In this document: positions 10,401-28,707 of the stretch, in pieces
Layout of the letters: each line of letters starts with the position of its first letter
Numbering within the stretch: position 1 is the stretch's first letter
NCBI GenBank assembly: GCA_964572875.1
Contig: CAZNGE010000008.1
Span: 5,753-34,509 of the forward strand
Direction: 5' to 3'
Origin: an uncultured Methanosarcinales archaeon
Lineage (GTDB): Archaea; Nanobdellota; Nanobdellia; Woesearchaeales; UBA11576
Length of the DNA: 28,757 bases
Notes under the pieces: generated by a model
Databases searched by the model: none
What the model was told of the DNA's origin: nothing
What the model saw: the letters and a program-made list of their open reading frames with translations, nothing else
Position numbers and translations under genes: made by a program

Positions 10401-10553
10401 TCCAGGACTATTCCTGACCTTCCTGAGCAGCCCTTCTGATTCAGGCTTCCTGTCTATCAGGTCGTTCACCCTGCTCAGCTCAGAGTTCAGCTTCTCGATG
10501 TCTCTATCGACAACCATCGACTTTCTCTTTCCTCTTCTTGCTGTCCTGCTCAT
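1473..10553 (-). CDS. Giant (3026 aa) glycosylated cell-surface/adhesin-like membrane protein. Predicted layout: N-terminal cytoplasmic segment and TM anchor; a huge extracellular region with Ig-like tandem repeats, a LamG/concanavalin-like domain, a poly-Gly linker and a Cys-rich triple repeat; three C-terminal TM helices; a Pro/Ala/Lys-rich cytoplasmic tail.
   Basis: A single uninterrupted ORF. It carries dozens of N-x-S/T sequons. A LamG_3-like signature is present (FTISAWVKV...WYHVVGRF...VSLWVNG). There are ~95-aa repeats containing the motif LYRNGT (DNA repeats near 4005, 5397 and 5639). A Gly13 run is encoded at 2972-3003, flanked by CxxC-rich modules (WxC..WG.C.....Q.RAC, three copies). 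TM helices are encoded around 2270-2560 and 10330-10390. The low-complexity PAK-rich tail is encoded at 1473-2270. The start overlaps the upstream regulator stop by 4 bp. Confidence 0.85.
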   Translation of the reverse strand: MSRTARRGKRKSMVVDRDIEKLNSELSRVNDLIDRKPESEGLLRKVRNSPGSITNYGRIQNHPLMQKEVLFALILLIITAGLFFMHGGITAWIVGGDQYTTYVQHIGANITESQEMTWRLESHPDSFSLRSVKLTGHLKGTGNAKAYLEDSDGRRYLLLDEDTVQKQAITQVTAFAILAGELAEDGNNTENITEDNSTAGNRTEEETVEEEIPAEEVPEDLLGDLSSVDEQAAEVDVPPEEREITTVLRYNMGTLWDEDNDGTEFIEDGVVDLTVEGTGFNWPVDESKLCTKWTVSSIDDGIDTTVCNGAADCCMLAGVAPEEPDWNTPLYVFHGKYGATDNNTVTAQVVFLNQSLSGDVYFESTVGTASSLPVEFVPKETFDFADVCVQTCSLPDGLDADEYTLVFELDDRVELYIENITYSVENLTVDITENETANLTASLTMANATNVSYEKVKTDIRYDAIVDATAYDNETDTLIVIFHHDSFTPLPILVKGRVDYTLDKNISSYGENVTLTITNWSDRMFRIAVGSHTEVLEFGRARQIKFRGRILDSRGRGISARITFRDSLTEEVVAEKTDAEEEKTIDEGEYDIRAEFEDGSHIKEILIDNVDIYDNITSFINVEDVNETEKNLTEYAEVYAIDPTAFNFTNATVTVTATGTVLYKCTSWNFTTQECVISPEDCEPDRGTCNTIQGWQEVMTLTPGQDYSFTLTPDDPGFAEGSPSSGTPDDGGLTSSGTGYDISGGSHASTQTDDSAYYYVGRGNSEEGDDLGAYIELEYDISSLGISPADITKLNFTINYCHSGDETNPVCGQSDPQEGSTNGAQNVELYNWTSSSWVDIGDITVYANDNQQWGSWMVTSGFEDYVDSSDWIKVRYETDIALSSGWDAAFLVDYAPLTVTYEATSGGISFDAASSATGTGSLSFSHTVGSDDNRILIVGVAAESNGASVAADTCRATSVTYDGTGLTKAAGYDLDDGADQCVSLWYLLAPASGTANIQVSFAGTVRESNAGGISIYNASQHAPEATNTNYATGNPSSITTSITTLTDGAWVIDAVGSGDVGAFSTTQSNTERWDVGSSTSQGAGSTKEVSTAGPTNMGWSQSANRLVHVLAAFAPASSNSAPTHTTPLLSSSGGTNTTDEDITIYNQSTYDADSDSVKNIINWYRNSTPIAVLNMPFEDISDPATDYSGQSNTGAVSGATWTETGGHDGSGAYNFDGTSDYINLGTPSELNFAGNSSFTISAWVKVMGNTDTHRPIVVKGDTQYTLKIYTNNTFETCAYDGGWECAYSQSALTEDVWYHVVGRFDNANVSLWVNGTYQSSTTHTGITTNGYNVNIGRDPENPTRLFNGNIDDVQIFDRALSAEQIQALHQGRTDLIVSQETSVGDVWYADVTPNDGTEDGTAKSSNTLTIVEEVDETPPATVTSLSESAIGWTWIQWNWTNPGDADFDSAILYLNGSNIANTSSNGYNFTGLEGFTKYQLIVHTKDADGNVNTTDVSDNALTLDHIAPQYSNIVDQNNSEYAAGGLYQFNITWTDNVNVNSVTFEFDGTNYTDASNSGEVYYKTLSDLATGSYTYRWFANDFLSNENQTGDITFVISERAAELTLTATPGWSSTYGTGVTVNCTTTDEGVTPQLYRNGTPVSIPDVQTLGAGSHGYTCNSTSTQNYSAGSTSNTSIVSKASTTMSISASPSWNETYGTQTTVNCSADNNEVTPQLYRNGTLVSIPNVQTLAAKQHIYVCNASATQNYSASTISNTTTINKAASAVNLLLNGTDGNISIEVGNLVNETGSLVTGDILIELYEGGVLVNSGSSPVTNLTQYSTLGAFNVSAVYPESENYTASSETHWVTVQDTTEPAVILISPADNETTASQTQGFTFNLTDNYYSTASCTLYLDDAASGTNSSVSAGVSTTITNTSLPEGVHSWYANCTDGSSNNGGSSTRTLNIDLTAPNITIAMPLDGKTAGYIVNLQATPTDSVAGVASVWYEIKNSSGASVASDTLTAPNYQDSWNSSSEADGEYTFIVYSNDTVGNLGNSSSIFNLSNTQPYIEITTPASGTDWSSGFNLNITYQDDELSTVVYNITNSTGDIVQSNSTINLNTTSYKFNDPVEVPSIGFGSFTITAYANDSTGYETTETRNFTTSKAASVVSLLLNGTSSNMTIERTTAANLTAIRVTGTGPMQLYRNGALLGSGTTVSDLSAYDAEAVYNITAYYPETQNHSSSRQTYWLTVDDTIPPGSVTDLLLLNKGQNYLYWVWTNPTDSDFYRAEVWLNGAYKTSTANEYYYATGLNHSTLYTISIRPVDTSGTKGAWVNDTERTSFACNENWVAAYSACNLNDTRVKTYNDTAGCGTNYTTPTDNNTIVSCDCVVSTSFYGDTTNLTGNDLSDLQDVVLDNMAYGKIEFTENITITRCLDLDTYVRIGQDYAHISSSALPEFNKSANITLYGINFTSPRIMVDGSVCSSSVCAQINYSGGTFIFNVTHFTNYSVEEGPYCGDGSCNGVETCGSCALDCGSCGSPGGGGGGGGGGGGSARQEEACAPNWLCYSWGPCENNFQSRACFDANACNNDTDKPATERVCVSGCAERWACEDWGKCSEAGVQTRACNDLGRCGTDNRKPETVQPCYYDFCTDGKMNNNETGVDCGGSCRDCTPQELEELARRNLLTGEAITVQPYEPPNPLYIMPLILMLVLLVAVIALHKAKLSYRMKKIITAVHVLLIISIVFMLIVTFNVPEVTGRAVSSMVDTTGISGALLIIIVSVLMVGGFAYVAVTRGMPDLQGLEQYYSKSKYWAGYAIQKIKWSAKRKKQLKEIKVELDSGATSDEKPQQMFEGITQEIDRLNIKVEQTKKEEKPPAKPVQEQLQKPVKKDTAPASKPAVKPPVQAVKPIAPKTIARPITKPAARPVTRPATLTRQIIKPSTKPTTITKPAARPARPAAAPPPRTVAPPARKVVVELIRPKPAAPASAAPTAPARPAVQRPMQKPAPLQKPKEAAKPMKPIDPLAAKFGTDDPLKIAEAILKNRSRNDRDE

Positions 10554-11014
10554 TTCGCTATTGCTGTCCTCTTCCTCTTCGTCCTCATGTAGACTGTTGA
10601 GACTGTCTTGTCTGACCTGTTGAGTATGACCGCTATCTGGTGGTTTGTCATGTTGGCCTTGTCGCGCAGGTACTCGACTACCACTTCCAGTATCGATAAT
10701 GACCTGTCCTTCACCACAGAAAGAGGGATCTGCACCAGGGGCGATTTCTTCACTGACATCTCCTCGGTCTCATCCCTTTTTCTCCTTGCCCTGCTGTACA
10801 GTGTCCAGATGTTCCTCTCATCCCTGTTGGTGAGCATGCCTATCTCATGGTATGAGAAGTTCAGCTGCTCCTTGAGGTATTCGACCAGGGACTCAAGAAA
10901 GCTCAGTGATCTGTCGCAGAATATTGTGGTGGGTATGAGTATCTGGGACTCAGAAAAAGCCTCTTTTATGATTCTCTCTTCACTAAAGCCGCTGATAGCG
11001 GCTTCTTTTTCCAT
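10550..11014 (-). CDS. Tandem helix-turn-helix DNA-binding protein (two sigma-70 region-4 / HTH_10-like modules), the first gene of the giant-protein operon.
   Basis: The module appears twice: IP..I..DRSLS.LE..VEYL.......EI..L.NR...T.....RA.RKR. The gene is translationally coupled (ATGA overlap) to the giant gene. Confidence 0.6.
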   Translation of the reverse strand: MEKEAAISGFSEERIIKEAFSESQILIPTTIFCDRSLSFLESLVEYLKEQLNFSYHEIGMLTNRDERNIWTLYSRARRKRDETEEMSVKKSPLVQIPLSVVKDRSLSILEVVVEYLRDKANMTNHQIAVILNRSDKTVSTVYMRTKRKRTAIAK

Positions 11015-11103
11015 TTTAAGCCCTAAATTCCTCTTTTTTTTCTGTAATTACTTCAAAAGCTCTCAAAAAACAAAAATAATCGCTTTTGGGCTTGTTTGTT
11101 TCG

Positions 11104-11316
11104 TCTTACTATGTATGTATATTGTCGATAAATATGTTTTGGATCACGAATTTCAGGCTATCTTTCCTACCATGTGTGTTAATAGATATAAAAATGTTTC
11201 TCTTTATGTCTTACTATGTATGTATCTAACGTAGATTGATTCTTACTATGTGTGTATTTTATCTTACTATGTATGTATATGCTGTTTTCCGAGCGATTCG
11301 TCTTACTATGTATGTA
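11104..11316. promoter_or_regulatory. Array of five direct repeats of the 16-bp motif TCTTACTATGT(A/G)TGTA in the promoter region of the regulator/giant-protein operon.
   Basis: Copies lie at 11104-11119, 11209-11224, 11241-11256 (G variant), 11262-11277 and 11301-11316. Copies 1 and 5 share the extended form TTCGTCTTACTATGTATGTA. I did not see the motif elsewhere in the window. Confidence 0.7.
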
Positions 11317-11378
11317 TCAATTGTAGGAAAAAGGTGTGCAGCCGAATCCTGCGCAATAGACTGAGAAATGAGTGCTGT

Positions 11379-12221
11379 TCAGGCGATGAGCGGCGTTACG
11401 AATACCTCGACCATCGCAGCCAGGAACAGCACTATGACTGAGATTGTTATGATGTCTGTCGAGTCCAGCAATGATGTCTTGAACCTGTCCGAATTGAAGT
11501 CGTGCCTTATCACTGCTATGGACAGTATGCCTCCTGCAAGCGCGCCTACAAAATACGCCACGATCTCGAGCACCCCATGAGTCAGGTACTTCAGCACCCC
11601 TAATGATATTATGTGCGAGTATGTGGCTATGTTAGGCCCGAGATGGCTCATTATGCTGTTCCTGATGAATATGCCGATGGCCGCAGCCACTACAGAGGCG
11701 TTCCATGTCAGGATGAATATAGAGCCTGCACCGAAGAAGAATGAGAGCAGGAAGCAGAATATGAGTATCTTGAGGTTGTTGAGCATTATCCCTCCGACGC
11801 TCTTGAAAGAGGCCATGAAATTGCCTGTCGGGCTGCCTGATGATATCGAGGATATCGTGTTGATCTGTATGCTGAAGACGTCCTGCACAGTGTTGGTGGG
11901 CAGGAGCACGAAGAATAGCAGGAAGGCGGTGACAAATCCGAGGAACAGGAAAGTGAATGCGCTGACTGCCTTGCTATGCTCCTTTATCAGCCAGCTCTCT
12001 TTCTGTGGCGTGTCATCCTTCCTTGCCTCGACAAGGATGGTGTTGTATACCAGCGGCACAGCGCATATCGCAGTCAGCGTGACCATGACTATGCTTACAT
12101 ACTCCTTGAAGACCCAGTAGCTCAGGAGGAAAGCGAAAGCTGCATATACTATGCCAAGGAAGAAAAGTTCCCAAGGCTCTTTCTCGGCTTTTTTTGGGTT
12201 CAGTAAGGATTCCAGAACCAT
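11379..12221 (-). CDS. SpoIIM/DUF95-family polytopic membrane protein, ~280 aa.
   Basis: The protein has 6-7 TM helices and a conserved THGVLEIVAYFVGALAGG motif, which matches the PHGxxEIPA signature of the SpoIIM family. The ORF track extends the start to 12344. I prefer the ATG at 12221 (MVLESLL...) because a plus-strand TATA box at 12313-12320 lies inside the extension. Confidence 0.55.
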   Translation of the reverse strand: MVLESLLNPKKAEKEPWELFFLGIVYAAFAFLLSYWVFKEYVSIVMVTLTAICAVPLVYNTILVEARKDDTPQKESWLIKEHSKAVSAFTFLFLGFVTAFLLFFVLLPTNTVQDVFSIQINTISSISSGSPTGNFMASFKSVGGIMLNNLKILIFCFLLSFFFGAGSIFILTWNASVVAAAIGIFIRNSIMSHLGPNIATYSHIISLGVLKYLTHGVLEIVAYFVGALAGGILSIAVIRHDFNSDRFKTSLLDSTDIITISVIVLFLAAMVEVFVTPLIA

Positions 12222-12320: not shown

Positions 12321-12360
12321 TGATTTATGTGTGGGGGTCACCAATCAAAAGAAGGTGAAA

Positions 12361-12591
12361 ATGGATAAGCGCAGAAGAAGATTGTTTATATGCCTAATAC
12401 TTATATTTGTCTTGACCACGATAGCTTTTCTTCTCTCTCTTTTCGGCAAAGGCGGGACTGCGCCAGGGATATCAGGGGCGGCGGTCACAGGTTCGCCAGG
12501 CATAGGCTCACCTGTCTGGACAATCTATCTTCCAGGCGTGGCATTCCTTGGCATAATGATAGTGACTATATGGTATCTTGAGAAGAAGTGA
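12361..12591 (+). CDS. Small (77 aa) two-TM membrane protein.
   Basis: The ATG is preceded by AAGGTGAAA. The product MDKRRRRLFICLILIFVLTTIAFLLSLF...IYLPGVAFLGIMIVTIWYLEKK has two hydrophobic helices. The TTG-extended version starting at 12265 overlaps the promoter and is unlikely. Confidence 0.45.
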   Translation: MDKRRRRLFICLILIFVLTTIAFLLSLFGKGGTAPGISGAAVTGSPGIGSPVWTIYLPGVAFLGIMIVTIWYLEKK

Positions 12592-12673
12592 TCATCTATA
12601 TGCGGCTAGCTATTCATTATGGTTTCATTCTCCCATCTTCTGTCCATTGTTGTTTTCTGTGTTGTCTGACCGC

Positions 12674-12820
12674 TCAGTTCGGTCTTGAAAGGTCCATGTA
12701 ATCGAGGTCTTCATCATTCATCACTATCTCCCTTATGATCTCCACCCTTGCCTTTGACTTGGGCAGGGTGTATATGTACCGTTCCCATTCTATATTTGGG
12801 CCGCCTTCATGGATATGCAT
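12674..12820 (-). CDS. Possible small (48 aa) acidic protein.
   Basis: A perfect SD (GGAGGT) with a 6-nt spacer precedes the ATG: ggaggtagcatcATGCAT. The product is MHIHEGGPNIEWERYIYTLPKSKARVEIIREIVMNDEDLDYMDLSRPN. There is no homology support. Confidence 0.25.
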   Translation of the reverse strand: MHIHEGGPNIEWERYIYTLPKSKARVEIIREIVMNDEDLDYMDLSRPN

Positions 12821-13752
12821 GATGCTACCTCCGGAATGCAGGCTATGCGACAAAGACAACAAAATCATCAAACAAAATCATCAAACGCGCCCGCACCCCT
12901 GAATTTACCCATATATTAATGGTCAACCAGCTATTTAAATGTTGCTGTGATTTCGGGGTTTGTTGCGGGGTTGCTTTTGTTCTGTTTCCGCATGATTCCC
13001 TTGCCATAAAAAATATATAAAACGATTTATTAACCAACCCGTGATTTTTTCCGCATTTATTGCAAAAGATTTCAGCAACTGTTCAAAACTTTACCTAAAA
13101 CACCAATTTCCGTGATTATTACAACCATTTTTTCACAGCATTTTCCGTGCTTTGTTCGATTTGCATTTTGATTTGTTTATTTCAAACATTTTTTATCAAA
13201 AAACTATTTTCTATATGGATAAGTTTTAAATAGTAAAAAAGACATAGTTACTATTGGGGTCGGAGCAAGATAGCTTTCAAAGCAGTTTCATAATCCAATC
13301 GGTAAAAAGGAAGGTGTTGACTAAGCGCAGAACCGAACCTCGCAAGGGTCTTGTTCTTAGTCAAGCAGGTGATACAACATGGGGAAAACACTGACCACGA
13401 TAGCTGCAGCTGTGCTGGCACTGACTATGGGTGCTCCACACTCAGGCTGCACAAACGAGAAACCGATCCGGCCTACTGGTTCTCATGCAGAATATCCTGT
13501 TCCTTTTTTGAGAAAGCTGAGGAAAAAGATCTGCCCGGCAGCAAGCTGGGCGCAGATACAGGTGATAGATGAGGTGATGTCCGGAGCATCGAAAAGAGGT
13601 GCCGGAACTTCATATTTACGGGGCAGGGAGGCGCACTCAACGTTTGTTCTCCAAGCAAAGCGGCTTCGTCGCTTTGCGAGTATCGCCCGGAAAACATCCT
13701 CCCGCCCCGTACCTTATGCTCGTTGAGTTTGAGAAGATGAGAGAGAGATACC

Positions 13753-16140: not shown

Positions 16141-16186
16141 TACGGTCTTATGGTAATGTTCAACGACTTCGCTAAAGGTGTATTTT

Positions 16187-17590
16187 ATGGCAGATGATGA
16201 TCAGGATGATAAGGATAGCAACCCTTTCGATTGGGGCCCGCTTTACCCCTGCGGTGATGATAAAGGGGATGATTGGGGCGGGAAAGCGGATGGGAAGGGA
16301 AGCAAGAGCCGCATAGACTTTCTCATGCCGCCTCTTCTCGGAGGCAGGGACAGGAAGTGCGGATCTGAAGAAAAGCCTAAAGACCCTCCTGAATGGACCC
16401 TTGAGGAGCAGGTCGCATTCCTGCAGAAAGAGCTCGATGAGAAGACGGAAGAGATAGAGCATCTGAAGGCAGAGGTCAATATCTATTCCGGCATGGTCGA
16501 TGATTATGAGGAGAAGATAGAGAAGACGAACCAGAAGATAATAGAGCATAACGAGAACATCAGGAAATGGCGCGCGGCGCATGAGGTGCTGAAGAAGCAG
16601 AATGAAGAGCTGACGAAACGGCGCGGGTCCATGCAGAAGGACGGGAAAGTGAGTGAGACATTCGCGGACCTGCAGGATATCGAGAAGGAGGTAGTTGACT
16701 TCAGGAAGCAGGACATACGGTTCGATGACGTGGGAGGAATAGGAAGAATAAGGGGCAAGATAGACGAGTTCGCCGCAGGCATAAAACATTATGATATGCA
16801 TGAGCAGTTCGCACTGGACGCACCGAGAGGCCTGCTTCTCCACGGGCCGCCGGGCTGCGGAAAGACCATGCTTGCGATGGCGATGGCCAATGAGATGGAG
16901 TGCGATTTCCTTCTTCTGCCGCCTACAAGGATAGGCAGCGGCATAGTGACGCGTTCATCGAGGCGGCTCGAGTTCGTGCTGAAAAAGTTCGTAGAGAAAT
17001 TCCGGAAGGACAGGATACCTACGATGATATTCGTGGATGAGGCCGACGGGATGCTCAAGAAGAGGGGATCGGCATTCGGCGTCAGCACATACGACGACAT
17101 AGTCAATGTCTGGCTCCGCTATCTCCAGGGGTCTGAGGATAATGAGGGCCTGATACTTGTCGCTGCGACGAACAGGTTCGACATGGTTGATGATGCTATC
17201 GTGAGGGCGGGCAGGGTGAACTATGTGCTGGAGGTCCCGAAGCCTGACAGGACAGGCGTCGAGGACATACTCCGGAAGCAGGTCATATACCGCCATCGCA
17301 GGGCGAAGAGGGAGTTCTACATGATAGATGATTACTCCAGGCTTGCAGACATGCTTTACGGGAAGCAGGCGAGCGGTGCTGACATCGCAGCAGTCCTTGA
17401 GCAGCCTGCAAGGGGGAGGATACTGCAGTTCGCAGAGCTGCCTGAAGACATACCCATATCTGCCGATGATGTGCTGATATGCCAGCAGGAGCTTGAGGAG
17501 GCCGTGCGCAATTACGCGCCTTCAGACATGATGCGCAGGAAGGAGCCTATAGGCTTCGGCAAGGGAGGGCGTCAGGTGCTTGTTGGGTGA
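16187..17590 (+). CDS. Classic-clade AAA+ ATPase with an acidic N-terminus and a ~80-aa coiled-coil/helical N-domain. It resembles Vps4/CdvC or PAN but has no OB domain.
   Basis: Walker A is GPPGCGKT, Walker B is MIFVDEADG, and the SRH is VAATNRFDMVDDAIVRAGRVNYV. The pre-Walker segment IRFDDVGGIGRIRGKIDEF matches the classic AAA pattern, and a C-terminal lid (GADIAAVLEQ) is present. The ATG at 16187 is preceded by AAAGGTG. The ORF track's GTG start at 16178 is less likely. Confidence 0.8.
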   Translation: MADDDQDDKDSNPFDWGPLYPCGDDKGDDWGGKADGKGSKSRIDFLMPPLLGGRDRKCGSEEKPKDPPEWTLEEQVAFLQKELDEKTEEIEHLKAEVNIYSGMVDDYEEKIEKTNQKIIEHNENIRKWRAAHEVLKKQNEELTKRRGSMQKDGKVSETFADLQDIEKEVVDFRKQDIRFDDVGGIGRIRGKIDEFAAGIKHYDMHEQFALDAPRGLLLHGPPGCGKTMLAMAMANEMECDFLLLPPTRIGSGIVTRSSRRLEFVLKKFVEKFRKDRIPTMIFVDEADGMLKKRGSAFGVSTYDDIVNVWLRYLQGSEDNEGLILVAATNRFDMVDDAIVRAGRVNYVLEVPKPDRTGVEDILRKQVIYRHRRAKREFYMIDDYSRLADMLYGKQASGADIAAVLEQPARGRILQFAELPEDIPISADDVLICQQELEEAVRNYAPSDMMRRKEPIGFGKGGRQVLVG

Positions 17591-17604
17591 TTTTCGGGGG
17601 GATC

Positions 17605-17850
17605 ATGATGATATATCCAGAATTTGATGATTGCGGGCATCTCGTCGAAGAGGCGTTAGATTACGCGAGAGAGCTCGGCATAGGGGCCAATGTTGTCGAT
17701 GCGGTCTTTGACCATGCATACCATGACAACAGGCAGATCTACAAGGCTATAACCGCTCTACCTGACCATGACACCCACCTCAGGCAGGCCAACGTGACCG
17801 TCCAGAAGAAGGTGATGTCAGAGCTTGAGAGGCTCGCGGGAAGGAAGTGA
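17605..17850 (+). CDS. Small (81 aa) helical protein that overlaps and is coupled to the AAA ATPase gene.
   Basis: The start region overlaps the AAA gene stop. The ATG at 17605 is preceded by GGGGGGA. The ORF track's alternative GTG start at 17587 gives an ATGA/GTGA-type overlap with the AAA stop. There is no recognisable domain. Confidence 0.4.
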   Translation: MMIYPEFDDCGHLVEEALDYARELGIGANVVDAVFDHAYHDNRQIYKAITALPDHDTHLRQANVTVQKKVMSELERLAGRK

Positions 17851-17901
17851 AGACAGGATGCATGATGTTCGTGTAATAAGGACAAGGAAAACCATGGAAG
17901 G

Positions 17902-18417
17902 GTGTTAGAGATATACAGGCTTGACGGGACGGAACGGAAGATAATGGACTACGTGACAGAGAATGCGCATGCCACGCCCAAGGAGATAGCCAGGGCTGTC
18001 GACACCGACGAGCAGACCGCAAGGCGCCTGTACAACAGGCTGTTCGCGGAGAACGCGTGCTCGCAGGTTATCCTGCCGAACTACGCGATGCTGGGTTTCA
18101 AGGTGATGATAATCCAGAAGCTCAAGGTGAAGAACAAGTCTTTGCCTGACGTCGCTTTCATCAAGGCGAAGATAGAGTCCGAATGGACCAACTGCATCGA
18201 CTGCCACGAGACATTCGACGGCAAGATATTCGTAAGGAGCGTCTGGAAGAACGCTGAGGAGTTTAAGGATGCCAGGATCCGCCTGCACCAGAAGCATGGC
18301 ATGGAGTGGCTCTCCGGAGAGGAGGTCGACATGGTTCCCTTGAACGAGCAGAGGAGCATATTCAGGGTAAAGAGCCTTTGGGAAAATGAGGTGGAGACTG
18401 AGGAGCCTACGGAATAG
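17902..18417 (+). CDS. Winged-HTH transcription regulator with an Lrp/AsnC-like architecture. Its C-terminal alpha/beta domain carries a conserved CxxCH motif.
   Basis: The N-terminal HTH is KEIARAVDTDEQTARRLYNRL, and a RAM-like segment ILPNYAMLGFKVMIIQKLKV follows. The motif WTNCIDCHETFDGKI is identical in the paralog at 21941. The start is a GTG, supported by conservation of the N-terminus (GTERKI versus NEQKIL) with that paralog. Confidence 0.6.
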   Translation: MLEIYRLDGTERKIMDYVTENAHATPKEIARAVDTDEQTARRLYNRLFAENACSQVILPNYAMLGFKVMIIQKLKVKNKSLPDVAFIKAKIESEWTNCIDCHETFDGKIFVRSVWKNAEEFKDARIRLHQKHGMEWLSGEEVDMVPLNEQRSIFRVKSLWENEVETEEPTE

Positions 18418-18765
18418 GCTGGTGAGGTATCTGCGTATAAAGAGATTCGTTTGGCACACGGCGTTGCTCTCCATTATTTTCGATTTGCGGCAATGGAGGG
18501 CTAAGAGACCGGTTAGCAGGCTCAACATACGGATCATCAGGGTGAGCGACAGGAAAGTCGTGAGGATCCGCTGAGATCCGCTGGACCTACGGGATGACAG
18601 GGACGTGCCGCACAAAAGAGAGGTGACAGGATGAGCACGATAGTCATGCTCTGCATAATCATACTGAAAAAACTACGGTGGGACTCGTAGGATTCCCTTG
18701 ACCTCGCTGAAGGGGATTTCTTGGCGTCTGCCGTCGTAAAGTTGGTTGTGGAAAGGTGTTGGGAA

Positions 18766-20301
18766 ATGTTTTCACGAAGAAAAATAAAGAATAGCGCGAA
18801 GAGCGTGAAGGAGCAGAATGCGGAGAACAGAAGAAAGAGGAAGGTATACGTCGACGAGGGAGGGAATGAGGTCAACATCTCATGGTGGACTCCCTGGAGG
18901 AGCGTCAAGGCTTTCCTGCTGGCTGCGGCGATAGGCACGGCCGGTGCAGGCCTTTACCATTATTTCAGCAGCCGGGCAGCGGTGGACCCGGCGGTGGTCT
19001 CGCATATGGAGGAGGTGAATGATGAGTTCTCTCTGTATGATTCTTACAGTCCATTGATCACACCTCTTGAGAGCATTGTCTCTCCTGGCAGCAGGGGGAA
19101 CATAATCAAGGATTCTGTCGTGATGTATGGAATACAGTCAGACAGGAAGAACATGGCTGTCAGGTCGATGAAGAGGTTCACCAATTGTTCGGATGAACCG
19201 GGTCATGAGGTGAATATCAGCGACAAGCGCCCGTTCATAAGGCCTGTCGATACAGGACAGGAACTGTACATCCAGTCTGCTGTCAGGATAAGCGGCATGG
19301 ATTTTGATGACCTTGAAGGCATCGTCAGCAGGAAGGCGGGGATACGGATAATTCCCGGGGTTCCTGAGATACTGCCCTATTATTTCAGCATAGACACCGT
19401 GAGCATCAACTCCAAAGGGATTCCGATGAAGTATGTCGAGGCCAGGAATCCTGATGGCAGGGTGGGCAGGCTGCACTACTATGTTGATCTCAGGGGCCTT
19501 GTCAGGGACAACGTGCTCGACGAGAGTGATTTCAAAGACCCCATTGACATAAGCATAGACTCGTCGATAGAGGTCATGGAGATAAGGCGATTGTATGAGG
19601 GTGATGTTGCAGGCATGTTCGCCTACAAGGCCATGCCTGAGTATCTGAGGAGATTCACCGAAAAGACCAGCGAGCTGCCGATTGGAAACCCGTGCATAAA
19701 GAAGATTGTCGATGCATATGATGGCCAGAAGTTGAATGTGCTTGATATTGTGGATTATGCACTGAGGGTCACAGGACAGGCATTCAGCTATAAGGTTCAG
19801 GACGAGGGCCAGGATCTTATGGATCTGGTCAGGAAGGGGGAAGCTGACTGCGAATACTACTCGAAATTATTCGTGACCGTGCTGCGCGCGTTCGGCGTAC
19901 CTGCGCGGCCTGCAGAAGGGCCGATCATGAAAGATGATGGTTCTGGTTTCAGGGGGAGACATGAGTGGGTTGAGGTCCTCCTTCCTTTCAAGGATGGCTC
20001 GTACAGGTGGGTCCTGGCAGAGCCTACATGGGCCGATGACAGTCCTGTGCCTGATGATTTCATAAATTATGTCGACGGCAGATACCTGTACAGCTTCGAC
20101 TTCGACGTTCAGCTGGACACGGGTGGCGATTCAGGCACGTTCTATGTCCTTCAGGACCATCGATGGCATTCGACGCGCGTGGAGGATCTCGATGCTGAGA
20201 TCAGCGATGATGGGGAGGCGCAGGATATGGTGGAAGCCGGGGCAAGGATGGATATGCCTCCGCTCGAGATGATAGTCCGGAAGAGGGCAGGTGGTGAATG
20301 A
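18766..20301 (+). CDS. Membrane-anchored transglutaminase-like (TGc) cysteine-protease-fold protein, ~511 aa.
   Basis: It has a positively charged N-terminus, one TM (AFLLAAAIGTAGAGLYHYF) and then an extracytoplasmic domain. The TGc core is GEADCEYYSKLFVTVLRAFGVPAR...RHEWVEVLL...WVLAEPT (Cys-His-Asp/Glu triad). The ATG at 18766 is preceded by GGAAAGGTG. The ORF track's TTG start at 18721 is less likely. Confidence 0.65.
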   Translation: MFSRRKIKNSAKSVKEQNAENRRKRKVYVDEGGNEVNISWWTPWRSVKAFLLAAAIGTAGAGLYHYFSSRAAVDPAVVSHMEEVNDEFSLYDSYSPLITPLESIVSPGSRGNIIKDSVVMYGIQSDRKNMAVRSMKRFTNCSDEPGHEVNISDKRPFIRPVDTGQELYIQSAVRISGMDFDDLEGIVSRKAGIRIIPGVPEILPYYFSIDTVSINSKGIPMKYVEARNPDGRVGRLHYYVDLRGLVRDNVLDESDFKDPIDISIDSSIEVMEIRRLYEGDVAGMFAYKAMPEYLRRFTEKTSELPIGNPCIKKIVDAYDGQKLNVLDIVDYALRVTGQAFSYKVQDEGQDLMDLVRKGEADCEYYSKLFVTVLRAFGVPARPAEGPIMKDDGSGFRGRHEWVEVLLPFKDGSYRWVLAEPTWADDSPVPDDFINYVDGRYLYSFDFDVQLDTGGDSGTFYVLQDHRWHSTRVEDLDAEISDDGEAQDMVEAGARMDMPPLEMIVRKRAGGE

Positions 20302-21263
20302 TGACATTTGTCGATTCAATCATGGAGTATATGGACAAGTTCCGCTTCTGGGAGATAGTCTATGAGTACAAGCAGGGCCTGCATTTCAGGAAAGGCAGTG
20401 TCATAAAGAGGAAGGTAAGATGTGACAAGGAGCTTGTGAAGAAGAACCTTGACAGGATAGTCCGGGAGGAGAACAAGGCAATGCGTGATAATGGAGGCGC
20501 GTGGAAGTACGTCCTCCCTTTCAGCAGGCCGGAGATTCCTGAGAGTTTCAGGAGGTCTTTCCTCACTGGCAAGCTGAAGTACAGGCATCGGCGTGACAAG
20601 GCACGGGGTAAGGAGGTTCCTCCGGGTACTTCAGGCACCCGCCAGCTTGATTTTCTTCAGATGGCGATTGATGAGGAGCGGTTAATGAAGGAGAATGGGG
20701 GTGTGTGGAGATATGTCCTGCCTCTGTTCAGGCCGGATGTACCTGAAGGGTATACCCGGTCAATAATCACGGGCAGGCTTGAGCACGAGGGCAGGTACAG
20801 CAAGATACTCAGGCAGGGGCTCTATCTTTACGTACCTTTCCTGGATGATATAGTTGCGGAGGACGTAAAGGAGAGGGTCATGGACCTTCAGAACATCAGC
20901 GTTCCCACAAGTGAGAAAGGGGATGAGAGCAGGGTCATGTCTGTCAGCTGCGCTATCCGTTACGAGATACAGGATTTCTACAAGGCCCATACCAAGGTGC
21001 ATGATTATGAGAACACATTGCAGGACTACACGATAGCAGAGCTTGCCAAGCACATAAGAGGATGGAACTATGAGAGTTGGAAGATGGCAGATGTCATCAA
21101 GAACATAGAGACAGATGTCCTGAAGGCATTGAGGAAGACAGCCACGCGTAGATGGGGAATCAAGATCCATGACTTCTATATAACGGATCATATCAGCTCT
21201 GATGTCAAGAGACTGCTGCATGAGGGATTAGAAGCCCCGATAGCAGCGGCAGTTGGGGAATAG
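20298..21263 (+). CDS. SPFH/band-7 (stomatin/prohibitin-like) domain protein with no N-terminal TM and a ~120-aa internal tandem repeat inserted in the domain.
   Basis: The N-terminus FWEIVYEYKQGLHFRKGSVIKR matches the SPFH start. The insertion is two copies of NGG(A/V)W(K/R)YVLP(F/L)(S/F)RP(E/D)(I/V)PE...(T/I)TG(K/R)L. The domain then resumes with YVPFLDDIV...WGIKIHDFYITDHI (compare WGIKVERVEIKDI of stomatins). The gene overlaps the transglutaminase gene by 4 bp (ATGA). Confidence 0.6.
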   Translation: MMTFVDSIMEYMDKFRFWEIVYEYKQGLHFRKGSVIKRKVRCDKELVKKNLDRIVREENKAMRDNGGAWKYVLPFSRPEIPESFRRSFLTGKLKYRHRRDKARGKEVPPGTSGTRQLDFLQMAIDEERLMKENGGVWRYVLPLFRPDVPEGYTRSIITGRLEHEGRYSKILRQGLYLYVPFLDDIVAEDVKERVMDLQNISVPTSEKGDESRVMSVSCAIRYEIQDFYKAHTKVHDYENTLQDYTIAELAKHIRGWNYESWKMADVIKNIETDVLKALRKTATRRWGIKIHDFYITDHISSDVKRLLHEGLEAPIAAAVGE

Positions 21264-21940: not shown

Positions 21941-22429
21941 ATGTCGGGCAATACAAGATCCTTGAAAGCCAATGAGCAGAAGATCCTGCGCCTGCTCATG
22001 GACAATAAAGGACATACGTTCAGGGAGATAGCGAAGCAGGTCAACCTGAATGAGGTTTCTGTCAGGAGGATATACAACAAGCTCATGCAGGAGGATGTCT
22101 TCCAATCATTGCACATACCAAACTTCCCGCTTCTCGGCTATAAGATAATGATGCTCCAGCGCATATACATCGCGAGCCCGTTTCTCATCGAGACAAAGAA
22201 CATAATCAGGAACGTGCTTGATGAATGGAACAACTGCGTTGACTGCCACGAGACATATGACGGCAAGATAATAGCCCGCTCTGTATGGAAGAACGCAGAG
22301 GAGTTCAAGAAGGCGCATGCTGACTTCTACAAGAAGTTCGGCACAGAATGGCTCCAGAGGGAGAACATCGACATGATACCGCTCGACAACTCGAGCAGAC
22401 TGATCAGGATAAAGGGCATAGATGTTTGA
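21941..22429 (+). CDS. Winged-HTH Lrp/AsnC-like regulator, a paralog of the 17902 gene with the same CxxCH motif.
   Basis: The HTH is FREIAKQVNLNEVSVRRIYNKL. The segment WNNCVDCHETYDGKIIARSVWKNAEEFKKA is ~80% identical at the DNA level to 18188-18270. The SD is GGAGGG. Confidence 0.65.
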   Translation: MSGNTRSLKANEQKILRLLMDNKGHTFREIAKQVNLNEVSVRRIYNKLMQEDVFQSLHIPNFPLLGYKIMMLQRIYIASPFLIETKNIIRNVLDEWNNCVDCHETYDGKIIARSVWKNAEEFKKAHADFYKKFGTEWLQRENIDMIPLDNSSRLIRIKGIDV

Positions 22430-25304: not shown

Positions 25305-26884
25305 AGAATTCGCTGAAAGGAGTAGGATCGCTGGAACGTATCGTCTATCACACGATGGTGGATGGACGGGGCAGGCTTAGGAAGGGCTATGCCCGGCTCC
25401 TGAACCCTTTCGGCAAGTACCGTCATGACCAGTATCCGGCGAACCAGATAGGCCTGCTTGCCCGTCTCGAGAAGCCCCTGCAGGATATGCACATAAAGCT
25501 CGGCGAGATAGAGGATCTTGTCAGGAATGACCGCGCTTATGTTCAGGGCATGTATTCCCCCAATCTGATTCATTTCGTAAGGAAGGTCATCGCGCGTATA
25601 GGGATGGAATCATACAACGTAGAGTGGAGGAACAGGGAGAGCCAGATCCAGCTCAAGGAGAAGATCGAGGCTTCTACTGACATCACGTTGCTCGCGAACA
25701 GGATGCTTTCAGAGATGGCTGAGAGGCATGTCATAGCTGTGTTCAAGGACATAATGAGGGACAAGACCCATCCGCGGAAGAAGGACTTCTATACTGTCAT
25801 GGATCTCGGCTGCGGCATGCACGCCGCGACGATAGGTAACCATCTCGAGAAGCTGCATGATCTCGCTGGAAAGGGACTCATCCCGAAGAGATACAGCGAT
25901 TACGTCAGGGTGCTGCTCGTCGACGTGGATCCGCATGCGACGCATAAGACAGCAGACATGATATCCAATCCTAATTCATATAAGCATCTGGGGTTCAAGT
26001 TCAGCTCTCCGAGGGAGGTCCATTGCTTCAACATGAACTTCAATGAGCTCGCGACCAACCCGGCATTGATGGACTACACAGGGCTTGTAGACACAGGGCT
26101 CAGCGGGGCAGCGCCGTGCCACGTGACAGAGAAGGATGAGTTCTTCAGCATGAACCGCAAGCTGTGCTCGCACAGGGGGGCATTCTTCATGTGGGACTGG
26201 CTCGCCAAGACATTCGCGGCCCAGTATCTCAGGTTGCCGCGTATCGCACCGGGCTGCATATTGTTCGAGGCGTCTCGCGAAATCCCTGAACGGCATGAGG
26301 TATACACATTCGAAGACATAGATGCTATACCTGATGATTTCTATGAGAAACTTAAGGGCACAAGGTGGCGCAGCATCTATGAGCTGCGCGAGGAGGATGT
26401 GGCGCCCCATCTGGCGAACATGGATGCCTGGCTTGGGTATTGGGGGTACAGGATGTTCGACGATTCAGAGGAGTGCTTTGTCGAGAAGCAGGTCAATGGC
26501 ATGGGCATAACCGAGTTCCACCGTAAGCTGTTCCATATGCTGATCGAGAAGGAGAGGGGATACAACCCGATACATGATTTCGTGATAGGCTCGCTTTCAA
26601 GAGGCAGGAGGTCTGACCTTATGCCTTTCGATACCGGTAGGGTCGCCTACAACTTCATAGAGAGCTATGGCATCGAGGTCTCCAGGATGATGAGGAAGGC
26701 CGGTTTCGAGGCATATGACATACCTTTCGCAGAAGCGATGGATCTCGCAAGGACGCAGAACTTAAGCGGAGAGTTCAACATGAATGCAGATGATCTCAAT
26801 GAGACGCAGAAAGTGATGATGCCTGCCCTGAACTTCAGCGTCGCTTACGACGACAAGGATTATCTTGATGAGCTACTTAGATGA
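25301..26884 (+). CDS. 527-aa protein with an EgtD-like SAM-methyltransferase motif set. It is translationally coupled (ATGA overlap) to the 863-aa gene.
   Basis: Motif I is FYTVMDLGCGMHAATIGNHL, and the post-I segment is YVRVLLVDVDPHATHK with an acidic residue at the end of beta-2. Later motifs include FFSMNRKLCSHRGAFFMWDW. Confidence 0.5.
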   Translation: MKNSLKGVGSLERIVYHTMVDGRGRLRKGYARLLNPFGKYRHDQYPANQIGLLARLEKPLQDMHIKLGEIEDLVRNDRAYVQGMYSPNLIHFVRKVIARIGMESYNVEWRNRESQIQLKEKIEASTDITLLANRMLSEMAERHVIAVFKDIMRDKTHPRKKDFYTVMDLGCGMHAATIGNHLEKLHDLAGKGLIPKRYSDYVRVLLVDVDPHATHKTADMISNPNSYKHLGFKFSSPREVHCFNMNFNELATNPALMDYTGLVDTGLSGAAPCHVTEKDEFFSMNRKLCSHRGAFFMWDWLAKTFAAQYLRLPRIAPGCILFEASREIPERHEVYTFEDIDAIPDDFYEKLKGTRWRSIYELREEDVAPHLANMDAWLGYWGYRMFDDSEECFVEKQVNGMGITEFHRKLFHMLIEKERGYNPIHDFVIGSLSRGRRSDLMPFDTGRVAYNFIESYGIEVSRMMRKAGFEAYDIPFAEAMDLARTQNLSGEFNMNADDLNETQKVMMPALNFSVAYDDKDYLDELLR

Positions 26885-27883
26885 TGGTTTCGATGATGTC
26901 TTGTTCTTCTCAGAAGGGAAAGGCAGGTAGTTTATCCTGTGCTCCTTGAACACGAGGCCTGGTTTGCAGTCCTTTATCACGTCAGGGAAATTTGTCTTCA
27001 GCCCCCTGAGCATGTTGTGCAGCTCCATGCTGTTCATTACCTGTATCTCGAACTCAAGGTCTGCCAGCCCTATCGCGTCTGTTATGTAGATCGTGTTCTT
27101 GTTGAGCCTGAGATATTCTATTATCTGGTTGATTATCTGCTTGTTGACGGTGTGGAGCTTGAGGAACACCTTGAAGTGCTGGTATCCTATCTGCGAAGTG
27201 TCTATCATGGTGTTGAACGCGACGATGACCCCGCTGTCGACGAGCTTCTTTATCCTATACTTGACAGTGTTGGGCGAAGCGCCGACCTTCTTGCCAATGT
27301 CCAGCGTCGTGCTCCGGGCGTCTTCCGCGAGCAGCTTGAGTATCTCTATGTCAAGCTCGTCGATGTCTGCAGGCGGCTTGTTGCCCCCTATGACTGCTTC
27401 AGAATAATCTTTAGAGTCGAAGAGGTAGTTGTGCTTGAAATGGTAGATGTGCAGGACGATGCTTATGTAGTATTCCTGGAAGTACTTTCCGTACTTGTCG
27501 AGCACCTTGTCGTATATCTCCCTGAACTCATAGATGTCCTTGGCCCAGAAAAGTACCGCGATGTCGTAGAACCCTTCGTATGCTGCTATCCAGCCGACTG
27601 AGTTCAGGCTCTTGAGGTAGTCTGTGATCTCTCTCTCTATCGCAGGCGAGACGTTCTGGAACTTTATGAACAGCCTGTAGATCTTGTATCCTATGCCTGA
27701 CGTGTCTATGACTGCGTGGAACCCCTGTATTATGCCCTTCTCCACAAGCCTCTTCATGCGGTAGTTGACGACCTCTTTCGAGAGGCCTACCTTCTTGGCA
27801 ATCATGGATATCGGCTGCCTTGAGTTCCTGTCCAGTTCTAGAAGGATCCGCTTGTCTTTGGTGTCTAAAATCGTCGATTTCAC
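26873..27883 (-). CDS. Tandem-duplicated Lrp/AsnC-family transcription regulator with two HTH plus RAM modules. The transcript is leaderless.
   Basis: The two modules are KRILLELDRNSRQPISMIAKKVGLSKEVVNYRMKRLVEKGIIQGF and LDIEILKLLAEDARSTTLDIGKKVGASPNTVKYRIKKLVDSGVIVAF. On the minus strand a TATA (TTATAAAAT, plus coordinates 27897-27906) lies ~25 bp upstream of the ATG. The 3' end overlaps the convergent gene by 12 bp. Confidence 0.75.
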   Translation of the reverse strand: MKSTILDTKDKRILLELDRNSRQPISMIAKKVGLSKEVVNYRMKRLVEKGIIQGFHAVIDTSGIGYKIYRLFIKFQNVSPAIEREITDYLKSLNSVGWIAAYEGFYDIAVLFWAKDIYEFREIYDKVLDKYGKYFQEYYISIVLHIYHFKHNYLFDSKDYSEAVIGGNKPPADIDELDIEILKLLAEDARSTTLDIGKKVGASPNTVKYRIKKLVDSGVIVAFNTMIDTSQIGYQHFKVFLKLHTVNKQIINQIIEYLRLNKNTIYITDAIGLADLEFEIQVMNSMELHNMLRGLKTNFPDVIKDCKPGLVFKEHRINYLPFPSEKNKTSSKPSSK

Positions 27884-28260: not shown

Positions 28261-28707
28261 ATGATAAAGAGAAAGGACCTTTTGATTTTGTCATACCTAA
28301 GGAACAATGCCAGGCAGCGCCTTACGAGCATTTCCAGAAGGACGCACATACCCGTTACAACGATATACGACAACGTGAGAAGGTACGAGAAGAAGTTCAT
28401 CGTGAAGCACGCGAGCCTTCTTGATTTCAGGAAGCTTGGTTTCAACGCTAAGACAAATATAGCTCTGAAGATAAACGGCTCTAGGGCCGAGCTGCTGAGC
28501 TACCTCCAGGAACATCCGAATGTTAATTCTCTGTACAGGACCGATTCAGAATTCGATCTTATGGCAGAGCTTGTGTTCAGGGAGTTGAGAGATGTCGATG
28601 AGTTCATGGAGACCCTTAACAACAAGTTCGACGTGGAAAAGAGTGTCGTCTTCAACATAACAGAGGACCTTAAGCGTGAAGATTTCATGAGCAAGGTCTC
28701 GTTTTAG
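28261..28707 (+). CDS. Lrp/AsnC-family transcription regulator (148 aa).
   Basis: The HTH is KDLLILSYLRNNARQRLTSISRRTHIPVTTIYDNVRRYEKK, followed by a RAM-like domain. The SD is GAGGTG. Confidence 0.7.
   Translation: MIKRKDLLILSYLRNNARQRLTSISRRTHIPVTTIYDNVRRYEKKFIVKHASLLDFRKLGFNAKTNIALKINGSRAELLSYLQEHPNVNSLYRTDSEFDLMAELVFRELRDVDEFMETLNNKFDVEKSVVFNITEDLKREDFMSKVSF

Follow-up and report, generated by a model that had tools for sequence, protein, structure and literature searches.

The window analysed here, the whole stretch of 28,757 bp, carries on its minus strand a gene for a 154-aa protein with two HTH domains, followed by a gene for a giant, putative surface protein of 3026 aa. An array of short repeats sits in the 364-bp gap 5′ of the tandem-HTH gene. 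The features of the locus, with the repeat copies labelled S1 to S6 and the TATA-like boxes P1 to P3, are the following:

1473..10553, minus strand: surface-protein gene, 3026 aa, whose start overlaps the stop of the HTH gene by 4 nt (ATGA)
10550..11014, minus strand: tandem-HTH gene, 154 aa, with two sigma-70-region-4/LuxR-type HTH domains
11071..11090, minus strand: P3 candidate, CCCAAAAGCGATTATTTTTG, possibly one more BRE/TATA, located in the leader
11103..11119, minus strand: S6, TACATAC-ATA-GTAAGAC, 8 nt downstream of P2 and at −105..−89 from the ATG
11128..11140, minus strand: P2, AAAACATATTTAT, second conserved TATA-like box, putative in function
11164..11180, minus strand: S5, AACACAC-ATG-GTAGGAA, conserved deviant site, 5 nt downstream of P1
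11186..11200, minus strand: P1, GAAACATTTTTATAT, conserved BRE/TATA-like box, a putative promoter element
11208..11224, minus strand: S4, TACATAC-ATA-GTAAGAC, exact copy, 32 bp from S3
11240..11256, minus strand: S3, TACACAC-ATA-GTAAGAA, exact copy, 21 bp from S2
11261..11277, minus strand: S2, TACATAC-ATA-GTAAGAT, exact copy, 39 bp from S1
11300..11316, minus strand: S1, TACATAC-ATA-GTAAGAC, exact copy in columns invariant across relatives, at −302..−286 from the ATG
ending at 11379, minus strand: SpoIIM-like membrane-protein gene, upstream of the array

Five near-identical 16-mers had been reported in this region by a sequence-only reading, and the count was reproduced: TCTTACTATGTRTGTA has five exact copies on the plus strand of the 28,757-bp window (starts at 11104, 11209, 11241, 11262 and 11301) and matches in none of 100 dinucleotide-preserving shuffles. 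A sixth, diverged copy, TCCTACCATGTGTGTT, emerges at 11165–11180 once three mismatches are permitted. No further copy could be found on either strand of the 28.7-kb window at up to three mismatches, in agreement with the earlier statement that the motif was not seen elsewhere in it. The array was also correctly placed upstream of a tandem-HTH/giant surface-protein operon, in that both minus-strand ORFs lie downstream of it and share the 4-nt overlap. The description of the unit as a 16-bp direct repeat has to be amended. Its repetition stands, but the unit spans 17 bp and is better seen as a quasi-palindrome in a 7-3-7 frame (TACAYAC-ATA-GTAAGAn on the gene strand, half-site centres 10 bp apart) than as a plain direct repeat; the conserved block, ATACAYACATAGTAAGA on the gene strand, extends one base beyond the earlier 16-mer. 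Centre-to-centre spacings from S1 to S6 are 39, 21, 32, 44 and 61 bp, and the copies are thus dispersed rather than arranged head-to-tail, with 5–89 bp of unique DNA between them. The GC content of the 500-bp bin 11001–11500 is 0.37, compared with ~0.50 in the flanks.

The 154-aa protein is an internal duplication of a ~47-residue unit, and its recognition helices are NRDERNIWT and NRSDKTVST. The only Pfam match is to Sigma70_r4_2 (28 bits versus a cut-off of 25.7), and the best structural matches are region 4 of SigF, SigE and SigW on −35 DNA, so that both profile and structure assign the protein to the fold of the sigma-70 region 4/LuxR-GerE HTH superfamily. These matches are what it has in common with sigma-70 region 4/ECF factors, whereas the chain itself is a tandem of two region-4-like domains and regions 2 and 3 of sigma factors are absent. 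It does not belong among the sigma factors either by the NCBIfam sigma models, which score far below their cut-offs (e.g. 24.7 versus 323). Archaea are not known to use sigma factors. A PDB sequence search with the 154-aa protein returned nothing significant, no whole-chain structural analogue was found in the structure search, and an exact look-up of the protein yielded no matching record. Homologues, where named, are proteins of Woesearchaeota (DPANN archaea). When 1.84 billion representative proteins were searched with a profile, ~2,200 clusters at 50% identity were collected, namely, 2,193 at E-values up to 1e−3, of which 679 are at E-values up to 1e−30. The tandem-HTH family is therefore large and uncharacterised, and has no dedicated profile family beyond the sigma-70 region-4 models; we found no description of the family or of its array in the literature. 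As for the giant protein, it matches Laminin_G_3 (E-value = 1.8e−29) and, weakly, Big_7 and fn3, domains which are consistent with a surface protein.

The same HTH pair is also located at the C-terminus of very large proteins of other lineages, up to 5919 aa in length (P0092, P0095, P0098, P0100, P0110 and P0117 are examples), and many proteins of 300–370 aa contain two HTH pairs. The large proteins are candidate fusions, for which a gene-calling artefact is possible; if genuine, they could represent a tethered or cleavage-released regulator which relays surface state to transcription.

A metagenome scan provided 80 loci encoding relatives of the HTH protein, and 600–700 bp upstream of each homologue gene was subjected to a k-mer scan. 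Most loci with enough upstream DNA have locus-specific repeat families of 3–8 copies. Co-oriented arrays of 2–8 sites, 60–500 bp upstream of the HTH homologue, are present in ~40 non-redundant Woesearchaeota loci. The general site consensus is TACTTAC-AWW-GTAAGTA, of which TACAYAC-ATA-GTAAGAn is the variant of the window lineage. No array was detected at L049, L064, L066, L067, L071, L073 and L077; at these loci the HTH pair forms the C-terminal part of an ORF of 780–1500 aa and the upstream DNA is coding. The SpoIIM-like upstream neighbour is restricted to the closest relatives, with other genes in its place elsewhere. A homologue of the giant protein is encoded after the HTH gene in most loci, usually with the two genes overlapping by 4 nt, as they also do in L141–L144. 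A different arrangement is seen in L009–L012, where a large surface-protein gene is located upstream in divergent orientation, with the array between the two genes. The array thus stays with the HTH gene whatever the upstream neighbour, which supports its being a set of operators for that gene's product.

Repeat families of at least four copies were detected in 11 of 14 gaps upstream of HTH genes and in 3 of 25 other gaps of the same loci. Using the locus-specific consensus with up to two mismatches on both strands, we obtained a site density of 7.4 per kb upstream (112 matches in 15 kb) versus 0.056 per kb elsewhere (8 in 143 kb), where the former value is inflated by derivation of the consensus from the upstream regions and the near-zero count elsewhere is unaffected. 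Exact ATACAYACATAGTAAGA occurs at 41 loci in 185,579 GTDB species genomes: 37 are singletons in unrelated taxa, and 7 matches come from 4 Woesearchaeota-type contigs, which bear the same Woesearchaeota organism title as the protein homologues. All 7 of these matches lie 90–300 bp upstream of an HTH homologue. In IMG/VR viral contigs there are 18 singletons, which corresponds to chance level. Since the Woesearchaeota matches are found only upstream of HTH genes and the others are singletons, a common dispersed repeat is ruled out for the window, for 143 kb of related loci and for the GTDB species genomes. Another repeat family of at least four copies, a rarity outside the gaps upstream of HTH genes, occupies an intergenic region of L056, at −1270..−679 from the HTH gene, with six copies of a AGATATTACT-type 10-mer.

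The sequence-only reading had further entertained a phase- or copy-number-variable switch, whereby gain or loss of repeats would toggle surface-protein expression in populations, and had proposed to compare repeat copy number between strains. The array is unchanged in L141, a strain of 99% identity recovered from the same JGI sample. In L142 and L143 (97% strains) sites S4–S6 carry point changes and the contigs end before S3. L144, with 81% protein identity, is without S3 through a 21-nt indel equal to two helical turns. This whole-unit indel is the sole difference in copy number that was observed. Direct repeats could in principle recombine, and the loss of exactly one unit in one relative would fit such a switch, but the only indel separates species-level relatives and preserves the helical phase, while the 99% strain is unchanged and the 97% strains display point changes alone in S4–S6. 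Moreover, a phase-variable tract consists of head-to-tail tandem units whose number varies between strains, whereas here the copies are not tandem and have unique DNA between them. We therefore consider a phase switch extremely improbable, and this part of the earlier proposal is abandoned.

Two alignments of the intergenic region were compared, one with relatives at 66–81% protein identity (A2) and one with relatives at 81–99% (A3). The invariant columns correspond to the sites and to two BRE/TATA-like boxes, P1 and P2, whereas the rest of the region has diverged; S6 is an invariant block in both alignments. P1 is kept in L002, L004, L005, L107, L112, L115, L134, L142 and L144. The end of S4 is 7 nt upstream of this box and 13 nt upstream of its T-run. 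P2 is kept as A(T/C)ATATTTA(A/T) in L002, L004, L107, L134, L142 and L144. The deviant S5, in which AAC replaces TAC in most relatives as well, spans about −17..−1 relative to the start site expected from P1. The P3 candidate lies where the leader is best conserved in close relatives and is nearly invariant down to the 81% relative; it is not kept in all relatives at about 70%. Over all loci, TATA-like octamers show a modest excess ending 4–8 nt upstream of the sites, which, given how AT-rich this DNA is, lends weak support to a link between sites and promoters. The leaders of L142 (at ~205–275) and L143 also carry a 68-nt insertion between positions corresponding to ~11050 and ~11045 of the window. 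This insertion contains a hairpin, with CCAAAGACCT...AGGTCTTTGG as its inverted repeat, and may be a miniature mobile element; the window, L141 and L144 lack it.

Site spacings are phased with the DNA helix. For 84 neighbour spacings from 26 loci, the periodicity peaks at 10.5–10.6 bp (R = 0.62, compared with at most 0.38 among 5000 random sets), and the spacings cluster at 21–22, 31–33, 42–45, 52–55, 63, 73–75, 85–87 and 105 bp. Asymmetric arrays contain 76 sites in the common orientation and 2 in the opposite one. Within the window, S2, S3 and S4 are in phase with each other (21 and 32 bp), as are S4 and S6, which are separated by 105 bp or 10.0 helical turns; the off-phase members are S1, 39 bp away from S2, and S5, whose distances to S4 and S6 are 44 and 61 bp.

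Phased, co-oriented repeats are also typical of iterons, and the array might accordingly be an iteron-type replication origin or a centromere-like partition site, with the small HTH protein as its initiator or binder. The co-oriented ~17-bp sites with favoured spacing of 21–22 bp next to the gene of a presumed binder, the AT-richness of the region and the switch of coding strand and GC skew only 1.3–2.7 kb away (12.3–13.7 kb) would all suit this possibility. Iteron arrays of theta plasmids, with co-oriented sites of ~17–22 bp and ~21–22-bp phasing, also neighbour a gene for a two-domain DNA-binding protein, which is autoregulating in iteron systems and putatively so here. However, phasing and co-orientation are not discriminating because they are common to operator arrays, and an initiator gene next to the repeats is missing: no Orc1/Cdc6, Rep, primase or ParA-type gene was detected among the scanned ORFs of the window or among the recurrent neighbour families (the latter considered without a profile scan). 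In addition, the fold is of the three-helix region-4 type as opposed to the two-domain winged-helix Rep of iteron systems, and the protein consists of two HTH domains alone, without any domain for initiation or oligomerisation. Conserved TATA-like boxes lie among the sites, and the sole constant partner is the gene for the giant surface protein, either coupled or divergent. Given the lack of replication genes and the constant link to a surface-protein gene, we rejected the origin/iteron assignment as very unlikely.

Protein and site vary together across loci. For 42 non-redundant loci, site symmetry, expressed as the number of matching half-site positions (0–7), was compared with how far the two recognition helices of each protein, 9 residues each, are identical. 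The two quantities are correlated over all loci (Spearman rho 0.68) and also after collapse to 25, 21 and 15 protein clusters (rho 0.66, 0.64 and 0.78, respectively; p from 7e−4 to 2e−3), a procedure which corrects for phylogeny only crudely. Furthermore, in 21 of 23 loci, Asn at helix position 6 goes with a base other than T at position 4 of the half-site and Thr goes with T; L014 and L081 are the exceptions. Four combinations of helices and half-sites illustrate this relationship:

both helices xRTIWT: perfect palindrome TACTTAC/TACTTAC (L016, L018, L034, L078)
ERNIWT + DKT(V/I)(S/W)T: TACAYAC + TCYTAC (window clade)
DRTIWA + ERNIWT: TACTTAT + TACATAA (L022, L024, L035)
ERNIWH + DRTIWT: TACGTTA + TACTTAC (L025, L044, L056, L061)

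In the window clade the helix of the Asn type belongs to domain 1, which by this pattern would cover the upstream half-site, and in the L022 clade it belongs to domain 2. Such a difference in the implied polarity speaks against a conserved, oriented contact with the basal transcription machinery.

These relationships bear on the identity of the binder. An unlinked factor might occupy the sites, the adjacent HTH protein being merely a co-regulated passenger, and the window does encode other HTH proteins, of AsnC/Lrp type (17902–18417, 21941–22429, 26873–27883 and 28261–28707), which could serve as such. Yet across clades site symmetry and the base at half-site position 4 vary in step with the recognition helices of the adjacent protein itself, and the array always accompanies the HTH gene even though other neighbours change. 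Judging from these comparisons, an unlinked factor appears unlikely.

The perfect palindromes of some clades could also make a 7-bp hairpin, raising the question of whether the repeats act in the leader as RNA or single-stranded hairpins, or are simply neutral remnants of local duplication. In the window clade, though, the arms are not complementary and there are no compensatory changes restoring pairing. The gene-strand transcript folds no better than its shuffles (z = −1.2) and the array region has no Rfam match, so that neither a known RNA family nor a structured leader was recognised. Conservation in ~40 lineages and the 10.5-bp phasing speak against neutral remnants, and we find either of these two possibilities hardly credible.

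The arrangement of sites and genes is that of an operator array. The earlier suggestion that the repeats serve as operators of the regulator/giant-gene operon, possibly for autoregulation by the tandem-HTH protein, gains support from the comparative data, that is, from conservation of the array in ~40 lineages, invariance of the site columns, covariation, phasing and absence of the motif elsewhere. On sequence grounds, we consider it quite probable that the repeats constitute an autoregulatory operator array of the adjacent regulator, a single-chain, pseudo-dimeric protein of the sigma-region-4/LuxR type. According to the proposed mechanism, the six repeats would be operators for the 154-aa protein encoded directly downstream, which would act as a covalent pseudo-dimer, each HTH reading one 7-bp half of the 7-3-7 site. 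In the complex on TACATACATAGTAAGAC, the two recognition helices would enter successive major grooves ~10 bp apart; half-site centres separated by 10 bp would place both helices on one face of the DNA. In the window lineage the helices (NRDERNIWT versus NRSDKTVST) have diverged, as have the half-sites (TACAYAC versus TCTTAC), which would explain why the sites there resemble direct repeats and not palindromes. The co-oriented sites, mostly integral numbers of helical turns apart, may then direct a head-to-tail protein assembly on one face of the DNA, spanning two or three conserved TATA-like boxes and setting transcription of both the regulator gene and the coupled giant LamG-type gene.

Known systems offer partial parallels. 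Proteins of the LuxR/GerE-NarL type bind inverted-repeat sites, and NarL recognises 7-2-7 pairs of the heptamer TACYYMT (NarL–DNA structure 1je8); the resemblance of these half-sites to those of the array is a possible lead. Unlike in NarL-type regulators, where dimerisation brings two HTH units together, both units are here part of one 154-aa chain. A receiver or ligand domain is lacking, each half has diverged on its own and the host is an archaeon with TBP/TFB promoters. In EnfR (TON_1525) of Thermococcus onnurineus (PDB 8hno), each chain has a single HTH and the X-shaped homodimer binds one 36-bp site (PMC10570040), whereas the present protein has two HTH domains per chain and 17-bp sites in arrays of 2–8 phased copies; the two proteins share 20% identity over one domain. 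Iteron systems differ from the locus in that it has no replication genes, its partner gene encodes a surface protein and TATA-like boxes are found inside the array.

Positions of the sites relative to the boxes provide hints at the mode of control. Archaeal activators act upstream of the BRE/TATA box, and four sites (S1–S4) lie upstream of the distal BRE/TATA-like box P1, which is the geometry of an activator (UAS). S5 and S6 are each 5–8 bp downstream of a TATA-like box, and known archaeal repressors bound there, just downstream of TATA, block recruitment of RNA polymerase. Our preference is for autoregulation that includes a repressive component and may be dual-mode and threshold-like. If P3 is the real promoter, all six sites would be upstream of it, and this would suggest activation rather than repression.

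Giant surface proteins of DPANN archaea are thought to mediate host contact. To our knowledge, gene regulation in DPANN archaea is all but unexplored, as is the control of such proteins. The analysis links a family of regulators to a probable DNA site and a putative target gene; the regulator family is new, and the mechanism is of a known kind. A more far-reaching version, which we put forward tentatively and regard as rather doubtful, is that of a self-contained switch found throughout Woesearchaeota, in which the pseudo-dimer polymerises head-to-tail on the phased array and exerts threshold-like on/off control of the giant adhesin-like protein, itself probably serving the attachment of host-dependent DPANN cells. 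Were this version correct, protein halves and site halves would co-evolve independently and amount to a natural region-4 recognition code. The natural symmetric and asymmetric variants form a data set for the recognition code of region-4/LuxR-type HTH domains.

Several other features of the window deserve mention. The only Rfam match in it is a tRNA at 70–185 on the plus strand (116 nt, 41.5 bits, full model), which is not called by ARAGORN and may be an intron-containing archaeal tRNA. A 1.4-kb stretch at 12345–13752 is AT-rich and gene-poor; genes to its left are on the minus strand and those to its right on the plus strand, and the cumulative GC skew likewise switches here. No replication gene was detected in its vicinity. 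This stretch contains repeat pairs (13100–13152 and 13113–13194), a tandem 13-mer (12858–12883) and small ORFs for membrane- or lipoprotein-like proteins. A gene run on the plus strand (16178–21263) encodes an AAA ATPase with a coiled-coil N-terminus (16178–17590), a small HTH_24 protein (17902–18417), a transglutaminase-like protein (18721–20301) and an SPFH/Band-7 protein (20298–21263). Winged-HTH genes of the AsnC/Lrp type are located at 21941–22429, 26873–27883 and 28261–28707, which brings the number of further HTH proteins within 29 kb to four; one of the AsnC-type proteins, 336 aa long, is a tandem double HTH with a NirDL/Ahb-like match.
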